DNA of 64,000 bases from positions 32,001 through 96,000 of the IMG/VR virus record IMGVR_UViG_3300042900_000746; one strand, written 5' to 3'. The notes under the pieces are model-generated. The model worked only from the letters and a program-made list of their open reading frames with translations, had not been told where the DNA came from and ran no database searches. Position numbers and translations under genes: made by a program. The DNA is from a virus. Taxonomy: Duplodnaviria; Caudoviricetes. Below are positions 11,932 through 23,615 of this stretch, piece by piece (positions within the stretch are counted from its first letter, which is position 1; each line of letters begins with the position of its first letter).

Positions 11932-14900
11932 TCAGTTCCAACTGTTCCCATCCATGTCTTGAAGCTCGTAAGCTATACCAGCTGTTAGATTATTGGATAT
12001 AATATTGTAAATTTCTTTTTGGTCTACAAAATAATCTTTAACTTCTTTTGGTATTCTAATTATAACATACCCACCCTTATTGTAGGCTTTGCCAGATGGG
12101 GCATAGACGTCCCAGAAAGATAGTACCTCGGGAATTGCTTCTAATAACTCATAATTTGTTTTATCTACAGTTATCCCTCCACCCTTTAACCTTAGGTCTA
12201 CAGTCTCTGGCGCTACGCTATATGGATTATTGGTTACGTAAATAGTTGCTATTGGTAGAGCGAACGGATCATATTCGGACGATCTATTGTCAAAAATGGC
12301 TGTATCGTATGTGAAGTTAATGGCGGAATCATATAAATAATCATCAATTTTAATTAAATTATTTGTATTATTTTGAATATTTTGTTTTTTATAGATATTT
12401 TTTGGAAGTACATAAATATACAATGGTTGATTATAATAAATATTATTAGAATTTAAAACAGGATTCAATGGAATTGGCACTCCATTTATGTGATTAAGCA
12501 GAATATCCCTATTGACTGTCGTGTAGTTAACTTTAACCAATTGAGAATCTTGAGGTATCATATTCTTATTGAATTCTACTAAACCACTATAGCAATCAAT
12601 ATCTCTAATTTGTGAATATGCAATCTCTACCCATTGCGAAGATACGGATTCTCTAGTGTAAATTTTAATTTGAGGTTTAATAATTCCAACTATTGAATTT
12701 CTATTATTCGTAGGATGATTCCAAGCTAAAATCGGCGTGGAGCTTACCTGAATTTTATTAGAGCTAAGTATCAATGGAGATTCATTAACAATGTCCTGAT
12801 GTCCGAAACCAAATAGTTCTGAGGAGGGGGGTTCAAATTCATTAACTGTTGTGTACTCTGCGTTTAATTCTTGATCAATATAATTCGCTTTCCATCCAGT
12901 CCATTTACGTTCAGAAGAAATAGAAATCTTTTTCCAGAAACTTCCGGTAGTTAACCGCAGTGGCCACGCATCAAACTTAGATAAATTGTCATTGATTTTT
13001 CCTACTTTAATAGCAGAATTAGAATTAGTTTTGACAGAATATACTGGGACTATTGTTCTAAGTGGAACATTTACTGGCTTGAACGTTGTGTTTAATGTTG
13101 GACCAATGTATTCATTTTTATTTTGAGTATTGCCGTCCGCATCTATCGCGCAGACTCCAATAAATATATTGTTGACACCTCTAGATAGAATATCTATATA
13201 AGTTATTTGATTTCCTAAAAATTCTTTTTCTAGAATATCATAAAAACCATAAATGAATCCATCTTGGTTTTCTATTTCATTTTTTACTATAAATGAACCG
13301 TATCTTAAATCTATCTCTTCACTATTTATTGAAGATATTCCTGTTAATTGCGTATTGATTTCAGCTGAGGTCGGTAGTCCATAAGGCGATCCACTTTGAT
13401 TGCATAGCAATAAAATTCCATCATTCACATCTACTGAGTTTCTTGAATCAGAAAAAATACGACCGTCAATTGTCCTAAGTTTGTACCCAGTTGCTAAAGA
13501 ATTGGTAATATTAAATATTTGACTTCCACTATAATAAGTAGCTGACGTAGTTAAGCTATACTGGTTACCTGATGCTGTTAACGTTACAGGGTTTCCCGTA
13601 ACAGTAATCCCGTTAGAAGTTACTGTAGTGATAGCTGCACTATTTAGTGTTACTGATGTTGGCGCACTTGCAAAATTTATCATCAGATTATCAAAAGTAT
13701 GAGTTTCATTATCATCTAGCTTATATTCACCATTTGCAAAAGTCTCAGTTTTAGTTCCCTCAAATATTTGTGGATCAGAATAGGTGATCGAACTAACATA
13801 AGAAGCACTCCTAGTTAGGTTAGAGGTAGTATATGTCTTGCTGGCATCCAAGGCAGTTGTTACGTTATTGTGAGTCTCTTCAGAGACTACTATTGCAGTT
13901 ACAAGAGTCTCTCGAGCAGGCACAGTAACCGTCTGATCGCCAGGATCGACGTCCTTAATGGTAGTTCCATAAGCTTCAATTGCCTTAATGCCAAAACCTT
14001 CGCCATAGCCGTAATACGCAACTGATCTTCCAACAACCGACACCCACATGTACTTACAGTCTTCTGCTGGCATTCCGCCCATCTGAATAACAACATCTCG
14101 ATTGAATGCATTTGCGTTTATAGAACGCAAATTTGTTTTGAATATATCTTTCCCGAAAGAAGAGGACCATCCATACCCAACAATACTAAAATTTTTCCAA
14201 AGTGGATTATCATCGGCTTGAATTTCTATTGAATTTACAATCTTTAATTTTGAAGTATCTACTTCAAAGAATATAATATCTCTAGCTTCACTTGGCCCGC
14301 CAAATCCTGTAAAAGTTATTTTCCTATATGTTTGATTGCTTTCGAGACCTGACGCAACAACGGTAGCACGAGCTGCTTGCATGTACTTAATAACTTCTGG
14401 AACTTTAGTTACATCTCTAGCCCAAGTTATCCAATTATCAAAATTAGCTTCATTCTTCCAAAACTTAGTTAAATACCATTTAGTTTCACTATCAACTTTG
14501 CCATCTTCGTATAATTGCTCGTTGTCTATTTGGAATTTTTTTACTGCCGCCTCAGTAAGTGGACCATAGATGCCATCAACTACTGATTTATATGAGCCAT
14601 GAGCAGCCAGGGTAAACTGTATATATTTTACATATTCACCAGTTGGTGTCCGATCAGATGTCCATATCTTAGTGTCTTTATGAATATCTATATCGCCAGT
14701 ATATGGGAAAACATTATTTGCATTGGAAGTATCCGTTGGCCTCAAGAATCTTAGATCATCAATAGCTGATTCAAAATTTATGCAGCTGGCACTAGTTGAT
14801 ACTATTTCTCCACTGGGTAGGGTAGGATTAGTGGGGGTTAATCTTACCGATTTTAGTTGGGCACTGAATGTAGCCGTTAATCCAGTACTTAAAGTTACAT

Positions 14901-17343
14901 CAAATGCTACGGGCTTATCTACTGCTCTAGCATAGTTATATTTAGATGTTAAATTAAATGGATAAGATCTAAAAGAATTTAATACATTTAATTCATTATT
15001 TAATCTTCGTGTACCAGAAGTACTATATTGACTATCAATAACTGCGTAGGCGCCAAAATTACTTGGTATTGTTAGCTGCGGCGAAACTTTATCTGTATAC
15101 GCGTAACATTTAATATTTGGATCTGTTACTTTAAATAAATAATAAGATGAAGGTATATTTTCATTATTAATATTTGTACTGGTATTGACTACTGTCGTAT
15201 TACTTATTATGACATCAGGATTTGTGACCTCTATGAATATTTCAACATTAGATGACGATAAACTTTGAATTATTTCCCTTTGTGCAAGTGGCAAAAAACT
15301 ACTTAAGGATGATTTATAAAAATCAAATATAGAGCTATTATTATTGATAATAGCTCTAGCATATTTAGATTCTAAATTATTAATTAATACCTGTGTAAAA
15401 TACTGTTCTTTTTCATCATCAAACAACGCATTTTGATCCATAGTCCATGACGAATCCCACTGCGTAATAAAATTATATAAAGAACTTCTGATATCTATTG
15501 AACGAGTTGCTTGACTCCTGCAATATAAAGCGTAGGAAACTATATTGTACAATAATTTAAAAGGACCCTCAACGATACCAGAATACAATGTAGTTCCACT
15601 TAGATCCGCTGCAGTGGGGCCATAGTTCGAATCGGCTACTTGCTCCGGACTATTTATGCTATAAATAGAGTTGCAATATGGCATTAGTGGGAAGGTTGTT
15701 CCAATAATATTGCCTCGAGATAATGAATCTCCACTATTCGGATAGGCCAATACTACACCTGCGCTATATGTGGATGTAGAACTCGCGCCTAAATTTAGGA
15801 ATGAGTTTACTGTTGCTGCATTATTGAAATATTTATAGTTCTTATAGGCGTTTCCCCTATATGAATAATTGGATCCATATATTCCATAGTTGTCTTTTTC
15901 AAAGATACCATCTTGTATTGTCCATCCACCATTTTTAGTATTATCTAATAAAACATTAGTATCTACAGTATCTATATAGTTGGATGAAGTTGTTGCTGAA
16001 CTTAAGCTTAATTGTGGATTTAGTACTGTGGCATTGCATGTCCCACTGCTCATATCAAGAATTAAAGTTCCATTTTTTCTTAGAAATTCTTGAATTTTGG
16101 CGTTTTGATTTGCTGTTATTGATACTGGTGGAGACCAAGCTAAAACATCAAAATTATTAAGATCATCAATAGAATCTATATCGACCTTCCAATAAGAGGC
16201 CAATGTTTTGTCTGTGCCTGTTGCGTTGGGATTAACGAATGTATATTTAGCCAAATTAAACGGAGAGTTTTGCAACCTTGCAAAAACATATGGGTTAACA
16301 GTAGAATTATTTTCTTGAGTTGATGAGCTATATAAAACTCCTACCTTAACAGTTTTTTGTACAATAGTGCCAGAAGAATCTACTTCTGAACCATAGTTAA
16401 CTTGATCAAAATTAATATTATTTCTTGTCCTGGCAATCATTCGCCAGTTAAAAACTTCAAAACTTCTATAATCTTTAATGGCTTTTGACGGTACAACTAT
16501 TTGATATCCACTTTGTTGGTTTACTTGGGAAATTAAAGTGCGATATTTATGATCTATTTTTGTAATAGAAAAATTATTTTTATCTTTATAGTTATCATCT
16601 ATAACAAATGACTCTTCTGGAATTTCGTAAAAGTATGGAATGGCATTAATTGTTTCAGTATAATTTATATTTAGATTAAATATGTTTGCGTTGTCATCGC
16701 ATTCTACTTTGTCGTATACTAATTTCAAATTATTAGGTTCATCTGAATCAAGAAGCACTATAATTCTATAGGGAAATTGATTGTTTGCAAAATTATTTAA
16801 AGTTTTAAATGGTTCTAAAAGAATTCTGTATTTTTTGATATTAGTTATTGGGTCTACATATTCTTTGTTGTCTGCACCCAAAACTTTTATATTAAGATCT
16901 TTAATTGATTCAAACGGAACATATTGCTTTAAGGATATTAAAGATATATTTGCCGGACCAGTAATAAAATATCTACTGATGTACATATAGTGAACAAAGT
17001 CACTTGCGTCCGTTTTGGTAATATCTATTTTTTCTGTGTCTGTTGGTCTGTTTAAGAATATATTTCCAACAGTAATATCATTACTTGGAAAGTTATAACT
17101 TCCATCTATTTTTTTTAAGAAACCTAGCTCGTCAGCAAAGACTATGGTTGCCTTTAATCCGTCTTCATTTGTAATTCTATTTTCTTGTATACTTCCAGAT
17201 ATATCAACCATAGAGATGTTGCTGCGTGGGCTTACCTTCGATGAGGAAAACCATGATATACCAGCAGCTTCCGTGGGAATATTTTTGCCAATTTTAACTG
17301 ACTTTTCATTGCCATCTGTTGTTAAATTTTCAAACTTTTTCAT
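11932..17343 (-). CDS. Large baseplate/tail protein with an internal peptidoglycan-binding domain (1803 aa)
   Basis: GEYVKYIQFTL...VDGIYGPLTEAAVKKFQ...DGKVDSET matches the PG_binding_1 pattern at about 14475-14640; located in the baseplate cluster. Confidence 0.8.
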   Translation of the reverse strand: MKKFENLTTDGNEKSVKIGKNIPTEAAGISWFSSSKVSPRSNISMVDISGSIQENRITNEDGLKATIVFADELGFLKKIDGSYNFPSNDITVGNIFLNRPTDTEKIDITKTDASDFVHYMYISRYFITGPANISLISLKQYVPFESIKDLNIKVLGADNKEYVDPITNIKKYRILLEPFKTLNNFANNQFPYRIIVLLDSDEPNNLKLVYDKVECDDNANIFNLNINYTETINAIPYFYEIPEESFVIDDNYKDKNNFSITKIDHKYRTLISQVNQQSGYQIVVPSKAIKDYRSFEVFNWRMIARTRNNINFDQVNYGSEVDSSGTIVQKTVKVGVLYSSSTQENNSTVNPYVFARLQNSPFNLAKYTFVNPNATGTDKTLASYWKVDIDSIDDLNNFDVLAWSPPVSITANQNAKIQEFLRKNGTLILDMSSGTCNATVLNPQLSLSSATTSSNYIDTVDTNVLLDNTKNGGWTIQDGIFEKDNYGIYGSNYSYRGNAYKNYKYFNNAATVNSFLNLGASSTSTYSAGVVLAYPNSGDSLSRGNIIGTTFPLMPYCNSIYSINSPEQVADSNYGPTAADLSGTTLYSGIVEGPFKLLYNIVSYALYCRSQATRSIDIRSSLYNFITQWDSSWTMDQNALFDDEKEQYFTQVLINNLESKYARAIINNNSSIFDFYKSSLSSFLPLAQREIIQSLSSSNVEIFIEVTNPDVIISNTTVVNTSTNINNENIPSSYYLFKVTDPNIKCYAYTDKVSPQLTIPSNFGAYAVIDSQYSTSGTRRLNNELNVLNSFRSYPFNLTSKYNYARAVDKPVAFDVTLSTGLTATFSAQLKSVRLTPTNPTLPSGEIVSTSASCINFESAIDDLRFLRPTDTSNANNVFPYTGDIDIHKDTKIWTSDRTPTGEYVKYIQFTLAAHGSYKSVVDGIYGPLTEAAVKKFQIDNEQLYEDGKVDSETKWYLTKFWKNEANFDNWITWARDVTKVPEVIKYMQAARATVVASGLESNQTYRKITFTGFGGPSEARDIIFFEVDTSKLKIVNSIEIQADDNPLWKNFSIVGYGWSSSFGKDIFKTNLRSINANAFNRDVVIQMGGMPAEDCKYMWVSVVGRSVAYYGYGEGFGIKAIEAYGTTIKDVDPGDQTVTVPARETLVTAIVVSEETHNNVTTALDASKTYTTSNLTRSASYVSSITYSDPQIFEGTKTETFANGEYKLDDNETHTFDNLMINFASAPTSVTLNSAAITTVTSNGITVTGNPVTLTASGNQYSLTTSATYYSGSQIFNITNSLATGYKLRTIDGRIFSDSRNSVDVNDGILLLCNQSGSPYGLPTSAEINTQLTGISSINSEEIDLRYGSFIVKNEIENQDGFIYGFYDILEKEFLGNQITYIDILSRGVNNIFIGVCAIDADGNTQNKNEYIGPTLNTTFKPVNVPLRTIVPVYSVKTNSNSAIKVGKINDNLSKFDAWPLRLTTGSFWKKISISSERKWTGWKANYIDQELNAEYTTVNEFEPPSSELFGFGHQDIVNESPLILSSNKIQVSSTPILAWNHPTNNRNSIVGIIKPQIKIYTRESVSSQWVEIAYSQIRDIDCYSGLVEFNKNMIPQDSQLVKVNYTTVNRDILLNHINGVPIPLNPVLNSNNIYYNQPLYIYVLPKNIYKKQNIQNNTNNLIKIDDYLYDSAINFTYDTAIFDNRSSEYDPFALPIATIYVTNNPYSVAPETVDLRLKGGGITVDKTNYELLEAIPEVLSFWDVYAPSGKAYNKGGYVIIRIPKEVKDYFVDQKEIYNIISNNLTAGIAYELQDMDGNSWN

Positions 17344-20300
17344 TACTGTTCCTCATAATCTGGATGAGAATTCTCTAAGGTTGTTATATATTCTGGAGTT
17401 GATCCAAATAGCTTTAATTGATATTGATCAAATTTTCTTAATGGAACCCATTTTTCTGGAATCCAATTTGGTGTAGCGCCATTTGCAATAACGCTAGAAG
17501 AATCTGAATGCTTATACACGAAATTAGGAGTTGCAGTTAGATCTGAACCAGCCTGCTTGCTGTGGATGAATGAACCAGGTAAAGGCAGTCCTTCGCTAGC
17601 ATACTGCACGTTATCATAAGCTTCATTCCAATAAACGATATCACCAGATATAGTAACGGCAGTTAGTGATAAATCTTCCCCATCATTTATTAATAAGTTT
17701 CTGACTATAGTTGGATCATCAATCTCAATCTTAAGGAACCAGTGACCAGGATTGGTATTCGATTCAGAAGTAATATTATTGTTTATTGCAAAAGTGCCGT
17801 CAGAATTGGTTGTTATACTATCTGCGGGAGTTCCGTCAAAGAGGTCTAACAAAGTTCTTTCCTTAATCCAATTTAGATCTATTACGTGTTCAAATGGTCT
17901 ATTTTTCCAATAAACCCTACCTACAATTGATACATTTGTTAGCCCGTCAGCTTGGATCGAATACCTTACTGGTGTTGCTTTTACCTGTAAATGAAATTTA
18001 TTATTCATATGTATTTTAAATGGTATGACTTTTTGATATCCAGCGGTTGGTGTATCTGTAATGCCAGAAATCAATATCGAACTTTCATCCAATGTGGCAG
18101 GTATGGAGCCAGTGTATCTAACTATAGTAGTTGCAAAACCATTATCGTTTGTTTGGACTTGAGGGTCTTCAGCGTCAATCTCTGTGCTATAAATGTCAAA
18201 CGACATATTTGGTTTTAAGTTTCCGTTAATATCATAAGATACTATTGATAAATACATTAAATCTTCTGCTGAATCAGTTATATGTGCTGGTGATAGGTAG
18301 GCGTCTATCGATCCATATTCATATTCATTAGTATCAATGTAAACATAGCCTTCTTCTAAGGGATTACTAACTTGATTTATATCAAGGTCTATATTGTTAT
18401 GGTTATTCATATAATCTGATTCATAGATTATCTCATAAGAAGGAGTAGGTGACACAGTTGAAGGGGTAGTGGACAAGTATAAGTTAGCTACGTAAGAATC
18501 TTTTGCGCTGGAATAGACATCTTTATCTACATAAAAAGCGTTATTAACATAATATACGACTTCGTATTCTCTACCCTGGACTGATGGGGTAGCCTCTGAG
18601 AATGGCGAAATAACATTAGTTGCCGTACTCAAATTATTATATAAAGTTTTTCCTGTATATAAATCTTTTACAGATATTTTAGATATATTTTCATATGCCA
18701 GATATAAAGAGTTGCCACTATTTCCAAGAATATTTTCAGTATTATAAAAACTTGCCTTACCTGGTGTAGCTGAATCGGTAAATATTAAATTTCTATACTG
18801 AACAGCTGGTGTAGCTGAATCATTGGCGACATTTACTATTATAGGTGCACCGAATCTAGGTATAGAAGTTAATTCAATATTAAAAAACTTTCCAGTATGA
18901 TTTTGGGTTACTGGATTAGCATAAATATAGTGTTGGTCTTGATCAAGATATAACCAGCCGGTATTTAATCCAGTAAGATATGAACTCTCATTTAGATTAG
19001 TTCTCTTGGCATTGACGTTCACATATGTTTTTTCACTTGACGATATTGAGGAGTTTAAGCTATCTAGTAGTACCTCGGGATTATCTACATAAGCTTCTAT
19101 GCTGTTCGGTGTTGCTGCAAGTTTGACATAATTGATATCATATATATCTTCTAAATCTAAATTAAAAGAAGTTCTATTTAAATCAATAGTCTGCAAAAAT
19201 TTATCTTGATTATAGAAATAATTTTTTGATTCATTTATCTTATTGTAAGTATTATTATTTTCATCAATATAACCACTAAATACATTGGGCGTTGTGGTGG
19301 CAGTGAATATATCATTAGTAATCTTATCGAATGGATAATGAGACGAAGGGGTTGCAGCGTCAACGAGTATATAATTAGGAGTAGTAGAAGAGAAGTTAAT
19401 TGTTGCAGATGTTAGATAGTCTTTAGATCCTATCAAAGTGTTATTTGATGCATAAAATCCATACTTAATATTTGGAGATGATGGAACCAAGTATGAGTTT
19501 TGGGTATATGGATCTATTGCATATCCGCCATGAGAAGAATATGATCCAGAGCGATAAAGATCTTGTATTGCTGGAGTAGCTGCATTTATGTATAGATAGT
19601 TTAGGGATGAACCTGGTGGATATATGATCTTATCTAATAAATCATCTTTAAAAGATATAATTTTATTTTCTTTGCCGGAAGCAGATATATCATTTACGGA
19701 GTTTAATACAATATTAGAAGTTAATACATCAGAATTTTTTACCTCTTGCTTAGTTTCATAAACAGTGGATCCAATTCGTAGATTTGCATTTGTATAGTCT
19801 ATATTTGGTGATGTTAATGTGGTAGAGGTGCTAGGGCTTGGGTCGGATACATATGCTATGGGTGATGTGTTAAAAGAAGCTCTATAACCAGCAACTTCGA
19901 TTGTATCGTATGACTGTGTTCCCTGATTCCATCTAACACTATACGTAGTCTTAACGCTGGCTGCGTCATAGACACTAATTGAATTTGATGCTGGGGTAGC
20001 CTCTGTATTATAATACACGTCATTTGTTACTTTATTTCTAAACTCAAGATCGGTTAAAGTTAATCCATCTTGGTCAAATATTTTTATCAGACTAAATTCT
20101 GGACTTGCAGAGTGAGTAGATAAGAATCTATTTCCAACGTACATATCATCTCTATCTAGATAAGATAGATTGGTATAAAAAGTATTTGTTGCTGCATAGT
20201 TATCGTGGGGCGGTATAACAATTTCGTATGCTACTGCTACTCCTATGCTTTCGAACGGAACGGCAGTAAAAGACCGCACTGGACGCACGCGGATCGTGGG

Positions 20301-22433
20301 GGTCATCTTGTCGATGTTGGCGGACTGATTGCCGTTGGAGAAATTCTTGTACCACGCGAAGACGTTGCCGTTCTCAGAAGAACTCCAATAGGTGAAAGTA
20401 GAAAAATCGTCGCCAAGAGCAACACGGTTTGTATAAATTTCGGCAAGTTCATCTTTCGACGGCAAGAACCAATCTGATTGTCCGCCAGAAACTAGTTCAC
20501 TACAATACACTGCGGCCGATGTTGCTGCCACATTTCCTGATTGAGCAACAATATCAATAGTATTTTGTGCACCCGTACCAATCGCTGTACCGTCAGCGCC
20601 AGAAGCTGCCGAATACTGGTTCGCGCCAGTAGACCAAGTTCTTTGTACTTGTGTTGATACTGGAGCTACCTCAAAATATCTACCCGTAGAGTTTCCTGCC
20701 GTAGATGGGGTAATAAAAATCTTGCCACCACCAGGACCAATATCCCCAATTGCGTAGGATCCGGTACCAGCTTTTCTTCTGGGGGCTTCGTAATCTGAAA
20801 CTGTTCTAGTATAATTTAAATACCAAGAATAATGGATGTCTACTGGAGAATATACATACGAGGGGGTACTACTTATTTTTGTTCCGCCAATTTCAATATG
20901 TCCAGAAAATGATACCGTTGCTGATTCAACTGGATCTATCATTAACTTAGCGTCGTCAAAATCACCAACACCTGGTTGATAGTACTCAGCTGGCAGATCT
21001 GTATCTGTATCGTAAATTGCTGCAATTCGGCTTATACCTTCACCTAGTGTTCCAGCATAATCCCATACTCCATCGCCCCAATTAACATATCCTAAATTAC
21101 TTGGATATTTAATATTCAATTCTTCTACTAACTGCTTAAAGGCTGGAAGTGGCTTACCATCTTCGGAGAAATAATCTGCTGAAGATTCAATATCAGATAT
21201 TTCTAAAATCTCTGGAGTTGCGCCTGAATAATCAGAATCCGGCGTGGAACCGTATGCTCTCCATAGGTCTAACTCTCTTCTAAGAGTTTTCTTGTAGGCG
21301 TCCATAGAGACACCAGGAATGTTCTTAGTGACATCTAAAATTCTTTTTCTATAATTAGAGTTTGACTCTAGATTAAGTCTCGGCAGGCTGACTCGAGCAC
21401 CAAATTCATCAAAGTCATTATATATATTTAAAGGGTCTTGACCATATGTGGTGTTATTAACTTTTAATATTGAAAAATTTCTCATTGTTATTATTTGACG
21501 ATCCACCGCATTATAATAAAATACATAATCTGTAGATCGAGAACTAAAGAATTCCAATAAAGAAGAAACTCTACTCAACGGTATATCATCGCCAACTATT
21601 GTATTGATATTAGCTGGAACATTATATGATACATAACACCATGCTAGTTCATTGATATCTGCGCTATTGATATAGGCATTAATTCCATATAGATCAATCT
21701 TACCGGATATATAATCTAAATTTTCTCCAACTAGGGCATTTAGAAATGCACCGCCAGTTGAGTTGGGGGTCGCTAGACTCGGCGTAGCATCGGCCATTGA
21801 GTCTTCGAATAATGCTGTCCAAGAAGGAAATCTTTTAAGAATATTTCTTACAGAATTAGATATTACTGGAGAAATTGGATTATAAATTCCTATTTCTAAA
21901 TAAAATACTAAACCAAGTTGATTGATGTTTATTTCATCAGCATATATTTCAAGTTCTACTTTTATATATGGCTTTGCATTTCTGATAAAAATAGCGTTGG
22001 TATCTCCACGAAGGGAAGATTTTAGCCACGGTCCATCTTCATCATCTGACTCATACATCTGAATATTAAAAGTGGGAGATATAGTTCCTGGTATATTTGT
22101 AAAAATATGCCTATAACTTAGAATATCTATTCTTGAAGAAGTGTCTATAAACCTTTGAACGTTAGGAGTGGCTTCTTCGTATATTATTTCTCCAATGTCT
22201 GTCATATATATAGCGTTGGAGGTTAGCGGAGTATGGCCACCCAATGTAGATGGTGAAGTCAATTCTGTTCCGACGAATGTTTTATCACCTATCAAATCTA
22301 AGCCAGATGGTGACCTTATAGATGAGTAGTTCTTATACTGATTATTGCTATATAAATTTATAGAGTCAGTTGTCCATATATTGCCAGATTTATTAAAATC
22401 AGAACTTTTTAAAAGTAACAAATATTGCTTCAT
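17343..22433 (-). CDS. Large baseplate wedge/receptor-binding protein (1696 aa) with an internal DUF1566/C-type-lectin-fold domain
   Basis: Follows baseplate J. Contains a wedge-like FDEFGARVSLPRLNLESNSNYRKRI motif and an internal YAIGDIGPGGG...DWFLPSKDEL...YWSSSE...AW...VRPVRSF domain. Confidence 0.8.
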   Translation of the reverse strand: MKQYLLLLKSSDFNKSGNIWTTDSINLYSNNQYKNYSSIRSPSGLDLIGDKTFVGTELTSPSTLGGHTPLTSNAIYMTDIGEIIYEEATPNVQRFIDTSSRIDILSYRHIFTNIPGTISPTFNIQMYESDDEDGPWLKSSLRGDTNAIFIRNAKPYIKVELEIYADEININQLGLVFYLEIGIYNPISPVISNSVRNILKRFPSWTALFEDSMADATPSLATPNSTGGAFLNALVGENLDYISGKIDLYGINAYINSADINELAWCYVSYNVPANINTIVGDDIPLSRVSSLLEFFSSRSTDYVFYYNAVDRQIITMRNFSILKVNNTTYGQDPLNIYNDFDEFGARVSLPRLNLESNSNYRKRILDVTKNIPGVSMDAYKKTLRRELDLWRAYGSTPDSDYSGATPEILEISDIESSADYFSEDGKPLPAFKQLVEELNIKYPSNLGYVNWGDGVWDYAGTLGEGISRIAAIYDTDTDLPAEYYQPGVGDFDDAKLMIDPVESATVSFSGHIEIGGTKISSTPSYVYSPVDIHYSWYLNYTRTVSDYEAPRRKAGTGSYAIGDIGPGGGKIFITPSTAGNSTGRYFEVAPVSTQVQRTWSTGANQYSAASGADGTAIGTGAQNTIDIVAQSGNVAATSAAVYCSELVSGGQSDWFLPSKDELAEIYTNRVALGDDFSTFTYWSSSENGNVFAWYKNFSNGNQSANIDKMTPTIRVRPVRSFTAVPFESIGVAVAYEIVIPPHDNYAATNTFYTNLSYLDRDDMYVGNRFLSTHSASPEFSLIKIFDQDGLTLTDLEFRNKVTNDVYYNTEATPASNSISVYDAASVKTTYSVRWNQGTQSYDTIEVAGYRASFNTSPIAYVSDPSPSTSTTLTSPNIDYTNANLRIGSTVYETKQEVKNSDVLTSNIVLNSVNDISASGKENKIISFKDDLLDKIIYPPGSSLNYLYINAATPAIQDLYRSGSYSSHGGYAIDPYTQNSYLVPSSPNIKYGFYASNNTLIGSKDYLTSATINFSSTTPNYILVDAATPSSHYPFDKITNDIFTATTTPNVFSGYIDENNNTYNKINESKNYFYNQDKFLQTIDLNRTSFNLDLEDIYDINYVKLAATPNSIEAYVDNPEVLLDSLNSSISSSEKTYVNVNAKRTNLNESSYLTGLNTGWLYLDQDQHYIYANPVTQNHTGKFFNIELTSIPRFGAPIIVNVANDSATPAVQYRNLIFTDSATPGKASFYNTENILGNSGNSLYLAYENISKISVKDLYTGKTLYNNLSTATNVISPFSEATPSVQGREYEVVYYVNNAFYVDKDVYSSAKDSYVANLYLSTTPSTVSPTPSYEIIYESDYMNNHNNIDLDINQVSNPLEEGYVYIDTNEYEYGSIDAYLSPAHITDSAEDLMYLSIVSYDINGNLKPNMSFDIYSTEIDAEDPQVQTNDNGFATTIVRYTGSIPATLDESSILISGITDTPTAGYQKVIPFKIHMNNKFHLQVKATPVRYSIQADGLTNVSIVGRVYWKNRPFEHVIDLNWIKERTLLDLFDGTPADSITTNSDGTFAINNNITSESNTNPGHWFLKIEIDDPTIVRNLLINDGEDLSLTAVTISGDIVYWNEAYDNVQYASEGLPLPGSFIHSKQAGSDLTATPNFVYKHSDSSSVIANGATPNWIPEKWVPLRKFDQYQLKLFGSTPEYITTLENSHPDYEEQ
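20268..20415 (-). other. Putative diversity-generating retroelement variable region (VR)
   Basis: Encodes YWSSSENGNVFAWYKNFSNGNQSANIDKMTPTIRVRPVRSF. Of the 33 codons from N (after SSSE) to the last R, 29 end in G/C and 19 are NNC, in an otherwise AT-rich gene. Confidence 0.7.
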
Positions 22434-22445
22434 GCAAAAACCTTT

Positions 22446-23615
22446 TTAATAATTAGAAGATCCTATTATAACAGAATATATATTCACACTTCCAGCTGTA
22501 ACGTATTCTTTTATACTATTTGGCATAAAATCTCTTAATGGTAGCTCTTTGCCATCAGCTGTAAATGTATTAATAGTGACGCCTCTTACAAGATCGGAAG
22601 AAAGCTTTATTTGTTGTTCTATTTCAGATAATGAAACAGTATTTCCAATAGTCATAGAATTTAAATATCGCTTAACAAACATCGCTGCCTGATTTCGCAC
22701 TCCATTAATTATAGTATCTGAGTTACCTGAGGGAATGGTTATTGTAGCTGAAACGTTAATGCTAATTTTCTCTGCTACTCTTACATTGAATCTGACACCA
22801 ACAGGCTTAACAGCACTGATTGCACTTAGAATTGCTTGTGGCAAAGCTTTGATCGCAGATGAAACCTCAGGAACTACAATGACGTCACATGACCCTATTC
22901 CATAAGAGGCTTCACGTATCCTTACGTCTTTCACTCCTTTAACCGAAAGGGCTGCAAATCTTACGGATTCGACTGTGCCTGGAGCCTTAGTCTTCATGGA
23001 AGCTAGTATTCTTCTACGATAATTATCATCAGACTCTGATGTAATATTGGAGTAAATTTCCTTGGGGTTATTGGAGAAAACAACTACTGTTGGCGGTGCA
23101 ATAAAATTATGTTTAGTGAGCGAATTTTTAGGGGCAACATATGAGTTATCTGAGAAATTTGGTTCAGCCCTACCATAGGATCTTGTAGCGCCAGCTGGTA
23201 TAGAAACAGTCGAAGATAATTTGTAGCTATATTGTTTAGTGGTAAAATTAGACACGTCATTGTATAATAATGTACCAGCTGGTATTGTTATTCCTGCGCT
23301 GTGGGGTTTATCTATGAAAAATTCTACGTTAAAAGATTGTCTTTCTTCTGCGACAAAATTTGTAACGGACTTTCTTGAGACACCATATAGATCTCCAATT
23401 AAGTCTAAATTCCTACCAGACGCTGTACTTAAGTTACTTTGCGAAACAGTAAATCTAAATGCCTCATAAAGATCAGATATCTCCGCACTAACTGACTCTG
23501 CGAAGGCTCTAGCAATAGAGCCTGGATAAATGGCTGTAATACCAGCATTTTTTTCAAGCCCATTAAGTATGGAGACTAGGATTTCTGATTTATTTTTAAC
23601 ACCGTAAATAGCCAT
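22446..23615 (-). CDS. Baseplate J-like (gp6-like) wedge protein
   Basis: Motifs TASGRNLDLIGDLYGVSR, IPAGT, ESDDNYRRRI, ALSVKGVKDV and KPVGV are characteristic of Baseplate_J. Confidence 0.9.
   Translation of the reverse strand: MAIYGVKNKSEILVSILNGLEKNAGITAIYPGSIARAFAESVSAEISDLYEAFRFTVSQSNLSTASGRNLDLIGDLYGVSRKSVTNFVAEERQSFNVEFFIDKPHSAGITIPAGTLLYNDVSNFTTKQYSYKLSSTVSIPAGATRSYGRAEPNFSDNSYVAPKNSLTKHNFIAPPTVVVFSNNPKEIYSNITSESDDNYRRRILASMKTKAPGTVESVRFAALSVKGVKDVRIREASYGIGSCDVIVVPEVSSAIKALPQAILSAISAVKPVGVRFNVRVAEKISINVSATITIPSGNSDTIINGVRNQAAMFVKRYLNSMTIGNTVSLSEIEQQIKLSSDLVRGVTINTFTADGKELPLRDFMPNSIKEYVTAGSVNIYSVIIGSSNY

Follow-up and report, generated by a model that had tools for sequence, protein, structure and literature searches.

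Diversity-generating retroelements (DGRs) are understood as self-contained systems in which the template, the enzyme and the target are inherited together. In the Bordetella phage BPP-1, the target Mtd forms a tail tip with a C-type-lectin fold and adenine-derived codon variation, and the phage carries its own reverse transcriptase (RT) and template repeat (TR) beside the C-terminal variable region (VR). The subject of the present analysis is a VR-like tract that lies in the middle of a gene for a 1696-amino-acid (aa) virion protein, within 64,000 nucleotides (nt) of viral DNA (the window: bases 32001-96000 of the IMG/VR record IMGVR_UViG_3300042900_000746, a contig of 133,870 bp with a guanine-plus-cytosine (GC) content of 37.5%). 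It is likely that this tract is an orphan and currently static VR cassette in the tail protein of a lake phage.

Two surveys provide the closest described systems. In the portion of Wu et al. (2018; PMC5758913) drawn on here, CLec2-type VRs that overlap DUF1566, DUF823 or Fib_succ_major domains constitute category 'd', with the Legionella DGR as its exemplar; the same portion describes remote targets of chromosomal DGRs and expects none for phage DGRs. Roux et al. (2021; PMC8144416), in the part that bears on target position, place VRs at the C-termini of their targets, attribute this position to cis elements, and point out that the survey approach would miss remote targets.

Homology of the tract to bacterial template repeats

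Comparison by blastn of the TR-bearing loci described below with the phage contig returned a match of 76-77% over 139 nt (E-value (E) about 1e-24), and this tract is the sole DNA similarity between the bacterial DGR loci and the phage contig. The local alignment of the tract with the TR holds 27 mismatches and a 6-nt gap, the mismatches falling on 18 of the 46 TR adenines as against 9 of the 89 other bases. In the codon-aware core, 18 of the 21 substitutions lie on TR adenines and three on other bases, and the window carries two one-codon insertions. The G/C-rich 3' end of the tract is common to the TRs, and the scaffold of the bacterial targets, at 36-44% aa identity to the phage domain, is undetectable by blastn. 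Since the foreign composition and sequence are confined to the tract, we infer that it was either written by retrohoming from such a TR or taken from an allele already written. Judged by sequence, it is a genuine VR of the CLec2/DUF1566 class, produced by a DGR. An earlier note on this stretch, made from its letters, had proposed a DGR-type VR; the TR homology and the adenine-biased differences bear this out, with the coordinates of the tract corrected to 20268-20406.

The templates themselves came to light in metagenome contigs, which were scanned with a pattern of the two conserved ends of the tract. At least 123 stretches were found, with 97 distinct sequences among the matches listed, most of which end 39-44 codons before a stop and hence are classical C-terminal VRs. 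Four of the listed matches (L105, L134, L139 and L192) are AAC-rich copies (11-13 AAC, 37-38% A) with no long upstream open reading frame (ORF). In L139, a C-terminal VR precedes the copy by about 720 nt, and in L134 the copy lies between bAvd (E 3e-14) and RVT_1 (E 1.4e-19). The AAC-rich copies are the TRs of a canonical DGR with the order target, bAvd, TR and RT. When 14 VRs are set against the L134 TR, 298 of 588 adenine sites are changed (131 to G, 109 to T and 58 to C) and none of the other sites, and the confinement of the changes to TR adenines indicates that the DGR is active in the L134 family. VRs of 113-125 nt also occur in the family among the matches listed, which implies longer, unsampled TRs.

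These elements are bacterial. Genes 100, 96 and 88% identical to the L134 RT are present in three contigs of metagenome-assembled genomes (MAGs) titled Actinobacteria/Actinomycetota bacterium, where the flanking genes encode an AlkZ-like glycosylase, phosphoglycerate dehydrogenase, an aminotransferase, acetyl-CoA synthetase and an ABC transporter; the genomes of the DGR-bearing Actinomycetota MAGs measure 1.5-2.4 Mb. The bacterial DGRs have as their targets proteins of 304 and 415 aa that combine collagen repeats with Lcl_C, the DGR loci have a GC content of 47-51% as against the 37.5% of the phage, and the nearest relatives of the RT in IMG/VR are only 44-51% identical. One DGR-bearing Actinomycetota genome holds, on another contig, an extra VR-like copy (G080:C52:747-887, L306) that is 77% identical to the TR, which suggests a remote target.

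A codon island inside the tract

The tract contains an island of NNC-type codons in which 30 of 34 codons end in G or C, 19 of them in C. Across the other 34-codon windows of the gene (n = 1596), the number of G/C-ending codons averages 8.1 (standard deviation 2.5, maximum 16), and among 34,610 windows in the 68 ORFs of at least 200 aa on the whole contig, codons 687-720 alone reach 30. The GC content at third codon positions (GC3) is 0.87 in codons 691-720 as against 0.07-0.37 in all other 30-codon bins of the gene. The island is real and far beyond chance. Its boundaries fall inside the TR-homology tract, and the remainder of the lectin domain follows the phage's own A/T-rich codon usage. 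The earlier note had described G/C-ending codons of this kind in the lectin stretch (29 of 33 by its count), a flanking gene with A/T-ending codons, and about 975 aa C-terminal to the VR; the listed codons, the contrast in codon usage and the length of the C-terminal part all hold, and only the count has changed on recounting.

The lectin domain as an insertion

The tract belongs to an Lcl_C (formerly DUF1566) C-type-lectin-like domain. Pfam Lcl_C (PF07603) matches aa 632-720 (E 3.9e-9, 37.3 bits against a gathering cut-off of 34.9) and scores 41.3 bits in a six-frame search of the genome, while phrog_4245 matches aa 558-723. The AlphaFold2 (AF2) model of the domain has a pLDDT of 87.7 and a pTM of 0.87. 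Its best Foldseek match is 8q4e_A, the C-terminal domain of Legionella Lcl (E 1.4e-5, prob 1.00, TM 0.73 target-normalised), which a sequence search also finds (E 5.7e-5); all other Foldseek matches have E-values of 0.027 or more, the weaker ones being C-type lectin-like folds. The family is very large (20,035 representatives at E<=1e-3), and the domain is often repeated within a protein; family members share a highly conserved scaffold followed by a variable stretch framed by YWSSSE and VRPVR. Tandem lectin domains of the family occur in P0002, P0003, P0004 and L187, with three copies in P0002.

Five orthologous loci reveal how the domain came to lie where it does. It is present in L002, which is 99% identical over 25 kb, and absent from L003, L004, L005 and L006 (93, 88, 88 and 44% identical), where aa 551-728 are cleanly missing and the flanks are joined directly. 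On this alignment evidence the whole lectin domain is an insertion, found only in the window phage and its 99% relative among the orthologs compared. The DUF1566/CLec identity proposed in the earlier note thus stands on Pfam and fold, its extent is corrected to aa 551-728 (20250-20783), and the presence/absence comparison that it envisaged places the domain in one ortholog out of five. L004 and L005 (10001-16162) lack the lectin domain, yet their proteins have 2054 aa, 358 aa more than the window protein, which implies other insertions elsewhere; it looks as though the protein serves as a platform on which modules are swapped.

Moreover, part of the inserted domain seems to have a history of its own. 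About 45 of the 55 differences to L002 within the 600-nt domain region are concentrated in the N-terminal half of the lectin scaffold, mostly as synonymous or third-position changes, and outside this patch the 1696-aa gene is nearly identical in the two phages. It seems that part of the lectin domain was swapped with that of a different family copy. Differences to L002 also cluster at 16000-16600, where 53 of the 262 in 25 kb are found; this second cluster, probably a further recombination patch, belongs to the neighbouring structural gene, a 1803-aa gene at 11932-17343 on the minus strand whose product has a stretch resembling an endolysin (aa 876-993).

A tip that appears to be frozen

Only two alleles of the window VR are known, those of the window phage and of L002. 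Their tracts differ at five sites, four at TR adenines and one in an inserted codon, and all five differences are nonsynonymous; codons 676-740 hold no synonymous change between the two. Of the 18 mutated adenine sites, 17 carry the identical base in both. Since each homing redraws all adenine sites, the two alleles must descend from one written product, with a few point substitutions since, and this product has persisted while the two phages diverged by about 1% (262 differences in 25 kb). The main contigs of the sequencing runs X11, X12 and X13 and a 174-nt contig of X18 show no differences in the tract, the sole differences in these contigs being at positions 20847 and 20865. The tip thus appears to be frozen and to undergo ordinary point substitutions only, probably with selection on the binding surface, and the tract is presumably inactive now.

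Short low-depth contigs of the four runs that match only the ends of the VR were considered as further alleles and rejected, as their flanks differ. Some of them run into AT-rich DNA like that which follows the stop codon of canonical bacterial targets, and they are read as other family members and not as alleles of the 1696-aa gene.

Search for the parts of a retroelement

RVT_1 has no match in the whole contig, which is estimated to be 63% complete, nor in the records of four relatives, a count that excludes the 196-kb record of L005; bAvd is missing from both records searched, the contig and the record of L002. No second copy of the tract was found in the contig by BLAST, by an ungapped scan that tolerates mismatches at genome A, or with the bacterial TR as query, which gave one TR-like match each in G000 and G001, the contig match being the VR itself; the record of L002 likewise yielded no second copy. 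The 121 nt downstream of the VR fold no better than shuffled sequences (z -0.03), and the canonical VRs of the bacterial family likewise share no common downstream hairpin. An RT, bAvd and a TR are absent from 134 kb. The earlier note had reported no RT, TR or downstream hairpin in 64 kb; for the RT and the TR this now extends to the 134-kb contig, where the search for a near-identical copy returns nothing beyond the VR and no adjoining RT gene.

Further afield, an adenine-tolerant 42-letter motif for a cognate TR (codons 692-705) has no match in IMG/VR and none in 241 million metagenome-contig records of the Joint Genome Institute (JGI), a set that does contain the window phage's own VR allele (L151). 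The two-end pattern finds in IMG/VR only four known VRs and no TR, and no TR lies within 10 kb of nine island-bearing VRs in the loci examined. An exact 18-base stretch from the 3' end of the VR matches in IMG/VR the L002 contig and one contig of 64% GC, the latter a chance match rejected on inspection. An RT is present in 2 of 75 viral records with the lectin domain (0 of 50 and 2 of 25), both with distant domains of 36-37% identity.

Re-randomised variable regions in other phage contigs

Several further viral contigs carry the same type of island in internal copies of the domain; in many other viral copies there is no island and the GC3 of the inner codons is 0.1-0.4. Among the former, L017/L018 and L027 are orthologous, with 95.6% identity over 9.2 kb. 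Over about 135 nt, their VRs (L017:10355-10490 and L027:7780-7915) differ at 42 sites, of which codon positions 1-2 account for 39; this amounts to full re-randomisation. Against the TR of the MAG contig L220, the L017 VR shows 22 adenine-site changes and one non-adenine change, as against three non-adenine changes relative to L134. For the L027 VR, it is the L134 TR that is closer (21 adenine-site and two non-adenine changes, as against four non-adenine changes relative to L220). At the invariant positions, the two alleles thus follow two different bacterial TR variants. No RT was found in the phage records of the L017/L027 type, which are 9-39% complete. Host DGRs may have written these VRs in trans, or segments already written in a host may have been captured repeatedly; the pattern fits both. 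A wider, tentative and on the whole doubtful proposal, for which the pair L017 and L027 outside the window is the strongest lead, is that RT-less phages have the lectin tips of their baseplate-associated proteins written by the chromosomal DGRs of freshwater Actinomycetota, through trans retrohoming during infection or through repeated uptake of VR segments written in the host, and that the tip in the window is one such product at rest.

The target gene and its setting

The coordinates of the features are collected in Table 1. Residues 223-392 of the 1696-aa protein match phrog_21059, annotated 'virion structural protein' (E 1.3e-16). Beyond the baseplate wedge gene there is a tail sheath gene, and in L018 the lectin gene likewise comes after a baseplate wedge gene. 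The phage is a large, AT-rich, contractile-tailed lake myovirus; the completeness estimate puts its genome at roughly 210 kb, and of the 20 sequencing runs that contain the stretch, nearly all carry a lake water or freshwater metagenome label and one a marine label. From its gene position the protein is plausibly associated with the baseplate or with fibres; where the earlier note spoke of a baseplate protein, the position after the phrog_6 wedge gene is the sole basis. A comparison of the whole protein with a phage database gave four distant matches only (22-27% identity, in Bacillus and Moorella phages), which are no guide to its host or function. A WhiB gene, sought as a hint of an actinobacterial host, is absent from the phage, which decides nothing on the host.

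Table 1. Features on the window, with positions counted from its first letter
Feature	Position	Strand	Details and basis
Inserted Lcl_C/DUF1566 C-type-lectin-like domain	20250..20783	minus	aa 551-728; ortholog absence, Pfam, fold
Variable-region tract homologous to DGR TRs of freshwater Actinomycetota	20268..20406	minus	blastn, adenine bias
NNC-type codon island, third-position G/C	20274..20375	minus	codons 687-720; unique in 134-kb contig
Apparent recombination patch, N-terminal half of lectin scaffold	20472..20729	minus	codons 569-654; differences to L002
1696-aa virion protein gene bearing the lectin insertion	17343..22433	minus	ORF; phrog_21059; orthologs L002-L006
Baseplate wedge subunit gene	22446..23615	minus	phrog_6, E 8.7e-39; directly upstream of the 1696-aa gene

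Two side observations concern the protein and the contig at large. The tripeptide ATP (one-letter code) occurs 14 times in the 1696-aa protein where 0.45 are expected (for example at aa 88, 216, 405, 812, 1222 and 1634), whereas 13 other large ORFs of the window contain 0-1 copies each. It is written with varied synonymous codons and is retained in orthologs down to 44% identity while the neighbouring residues change; it is a peptide-level motif, perhaps a modification site or a domain-boundary element. Further, several ORFs near the end of the contig (bases 122,900-133,400, outside the window) have 24-27 of 34 codons ending in G or C, a composition unlike that of the rest of the phage.

Weighing the explanations

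The likely course of events can be put as follows. A lectin domain was inserted into a large tail- or baseplate-associated protein, with the variable region forming its ligand-binding tip, and the sequence of this tip would have been generated by adenine-mutagenic reverse transcription from a TR of the family found in the chromosomal DGRs of small-genome freshwater Actinomycetota. Such a bacterial origin of the TR would account for the NNC codons and for the foreign G/C-rich composition within a phage-like scaffold. The cassette would now be an orphan in the phage lineage, with no RT, Avd or TR alongside, and its tip, which presumably serves host-surface binding, would change only by ordinary point substitutions at binding-site codons. 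Between the two alternatives that the earlier note had offered, a captured VR cassette is retained with the change that the whole domain is inserted and only the 139-nt tract is DGR-like in its DNA; a working remote internal target fares poorly, given the missing RT, bAvd and TR, the lack of a match to a cognate TR in IMG/VR and the JGI contigs, the identical tip in four runs and the descent of both alleles from one written product.

Several observations speak against an orphan and static cassette. The tract is not the clean product of any TR found, since it has three non-adenine mismatches and two extra codons, one of which is ATG and impossible from AAC mutagenesis; an unsampled longer TR could match the tract exactly. 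The four runs were examined as Logan contigs, which lose rare variants, and low-level diversification could hide there. Weak adenine mutagenesis, templated by a TR similar to the VR as it now stands, could likewise produce the nonsynonymous pattern at the five sites. Moreover, the VR of L187 is internal, with another domain beginning after it, and shows no non-adenine mismatches to the TR; internal position alone is therefore no sign of inactivity. Finally, an RT and a TR could lie in the unseen 37% of the genome.

Some of these points lend themselves to other explanations. During infection, a chromosomal DGR of the host could be writing to the VR in trans, which would make the VR a live target and the phage a borrower of the host's bAvd, TR and RT. 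The TR, bAvd and RT of this VR family were indeed found in bacterial chromosomes among the matches listed but not in any IMG/VR contig, the extra copy on another contig of a bacterial genome suggests that remote targeting occurs, the internal VRs of L017 and L027 are re-randomised and match the different variants L220 and L134 at diagnostic non-adenine sites, and the part of Wu et al. (2018; PMC5758913) concerned reports that avd, TR and brt function in trans from a plasmid. However, the window VR is itself not re-randomised, as 17 of 18 sites agree with L002 and four runs contain one and the same tip; besides having three non-adenine mismatches, it exceeds every TR among the matches listed by two codons; the GC content of the phage lies below that of the DGR loci and WhiB is absent; and the other phage contigs, being so incomplete, may possess a DGR of their own. 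Live writing in trans is thus considered unlikely for the window. That the phage's own DGR lies on the unsequenced part of about 37%, with the window VR as its non-adjacent internal target, would agree with a contig that is 63% complete, with the five allele differences at adenine-type positions, and with what a portion of Wu et al. (2018; PMC5758913) reports of phage-associated DGRs whose targets are non-adjacent and lie mostly within 50 kb. It is nevertheless very improbable: the cognate-TR motif is missing from IMG/VR and from the metagenome records in which the phage's own allele does appear, no IMG/VR contig has a TR of the family and the closest RTs there are only 44-51% identical, RTs accompany the domain in just two of 75 viral records and then with distant domains, and the window and L002 alleles share one written product.

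It could also be asked whether a DGR was involved at all, or whether an ordinary lectin domain with a piece of foreign G/C-rich DNA, or with a codon bias that arose by chance, would suffice. The very large size of the domain family and the many viral copies without an island would allow for this. Yet the tract is in register with AAC-rich TRs that adjoin bAvd and RT, its mismatches favour TR adenines (18/46) over other bases (9/89), and the limits of the island lie inside the homology tract; a history without any DGR is barely credible and already close to refuted. An orphan and currently static cassette, written by a DGR and now at rest in the phage, remains the likely account.

Significance and comparison with known systems

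A survey that seeks its VRs beside RT genes is blind to targets elsewhere, as the part of Roux et al. (2021; PMC8144416) on their approach makes clear. At the least, the present case would mean that VR cassettes, once written, pass from one replicon to another and can become fixed as ordinary binding modules, and that phages have a source of receptor-binding diversity even without a retroelement of their own. If live writing across replicons, hinted at by L017 and L027, proves true, a phage would be using a mutator of its host to retarget itself, a new kind of phage-host interaction. No report was found in the literature of orphan VRs, of DGR targeting from host to phage, or of a phage VR with its template in a bacterial chromosome, and the supplements of Roux et al. 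(2021) and Wu et al. (2018) may list such cases.

The Legionella pneumophila Lcl C-terminal domain (PDB 8q4e) is the best match of the inserted domain in both sequence and fold, at 24% identity, and belongs to a bacterial adhesin, not a phage protein. With the remote DGR targets of the Treponema denticola type, as far as they are described in the portion of Wu et al. (2018; PMC5758913) drawn on here, the window VR shares its position far from any RT; however, the known remote targets lie in the same genome as their DGR and differ from the TR only at adenines, whereas the nearest TR to the window VR lies in a bacterial chromosome and is inexact. Phage DGRs of the BPP-1 type differ from the window in that its VR is internal, no hairpin was detected and there is no cassette alongside, and they resemble it in the lectin-fold tip with adenine-derived variation. 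Set against the CLec2/DUF1566 targets as outlined in the source excerpts, the window VR stands out by lying mid-protein, about 975 aa from the C-terminus, with no RT, Avd or TR in 134 kb and no sign of current diversification. Its canonical relatives found here keep the order target, bAvd, TR and RT and have collagen-repeat plus Lcl_C targets, and with the CLec2/DUF1566 class, in so far as those excerpts characterise it, the window VR has in common the Lcl_C family, the YWSSSE...AW...VRPVR frame and the NNC codons.

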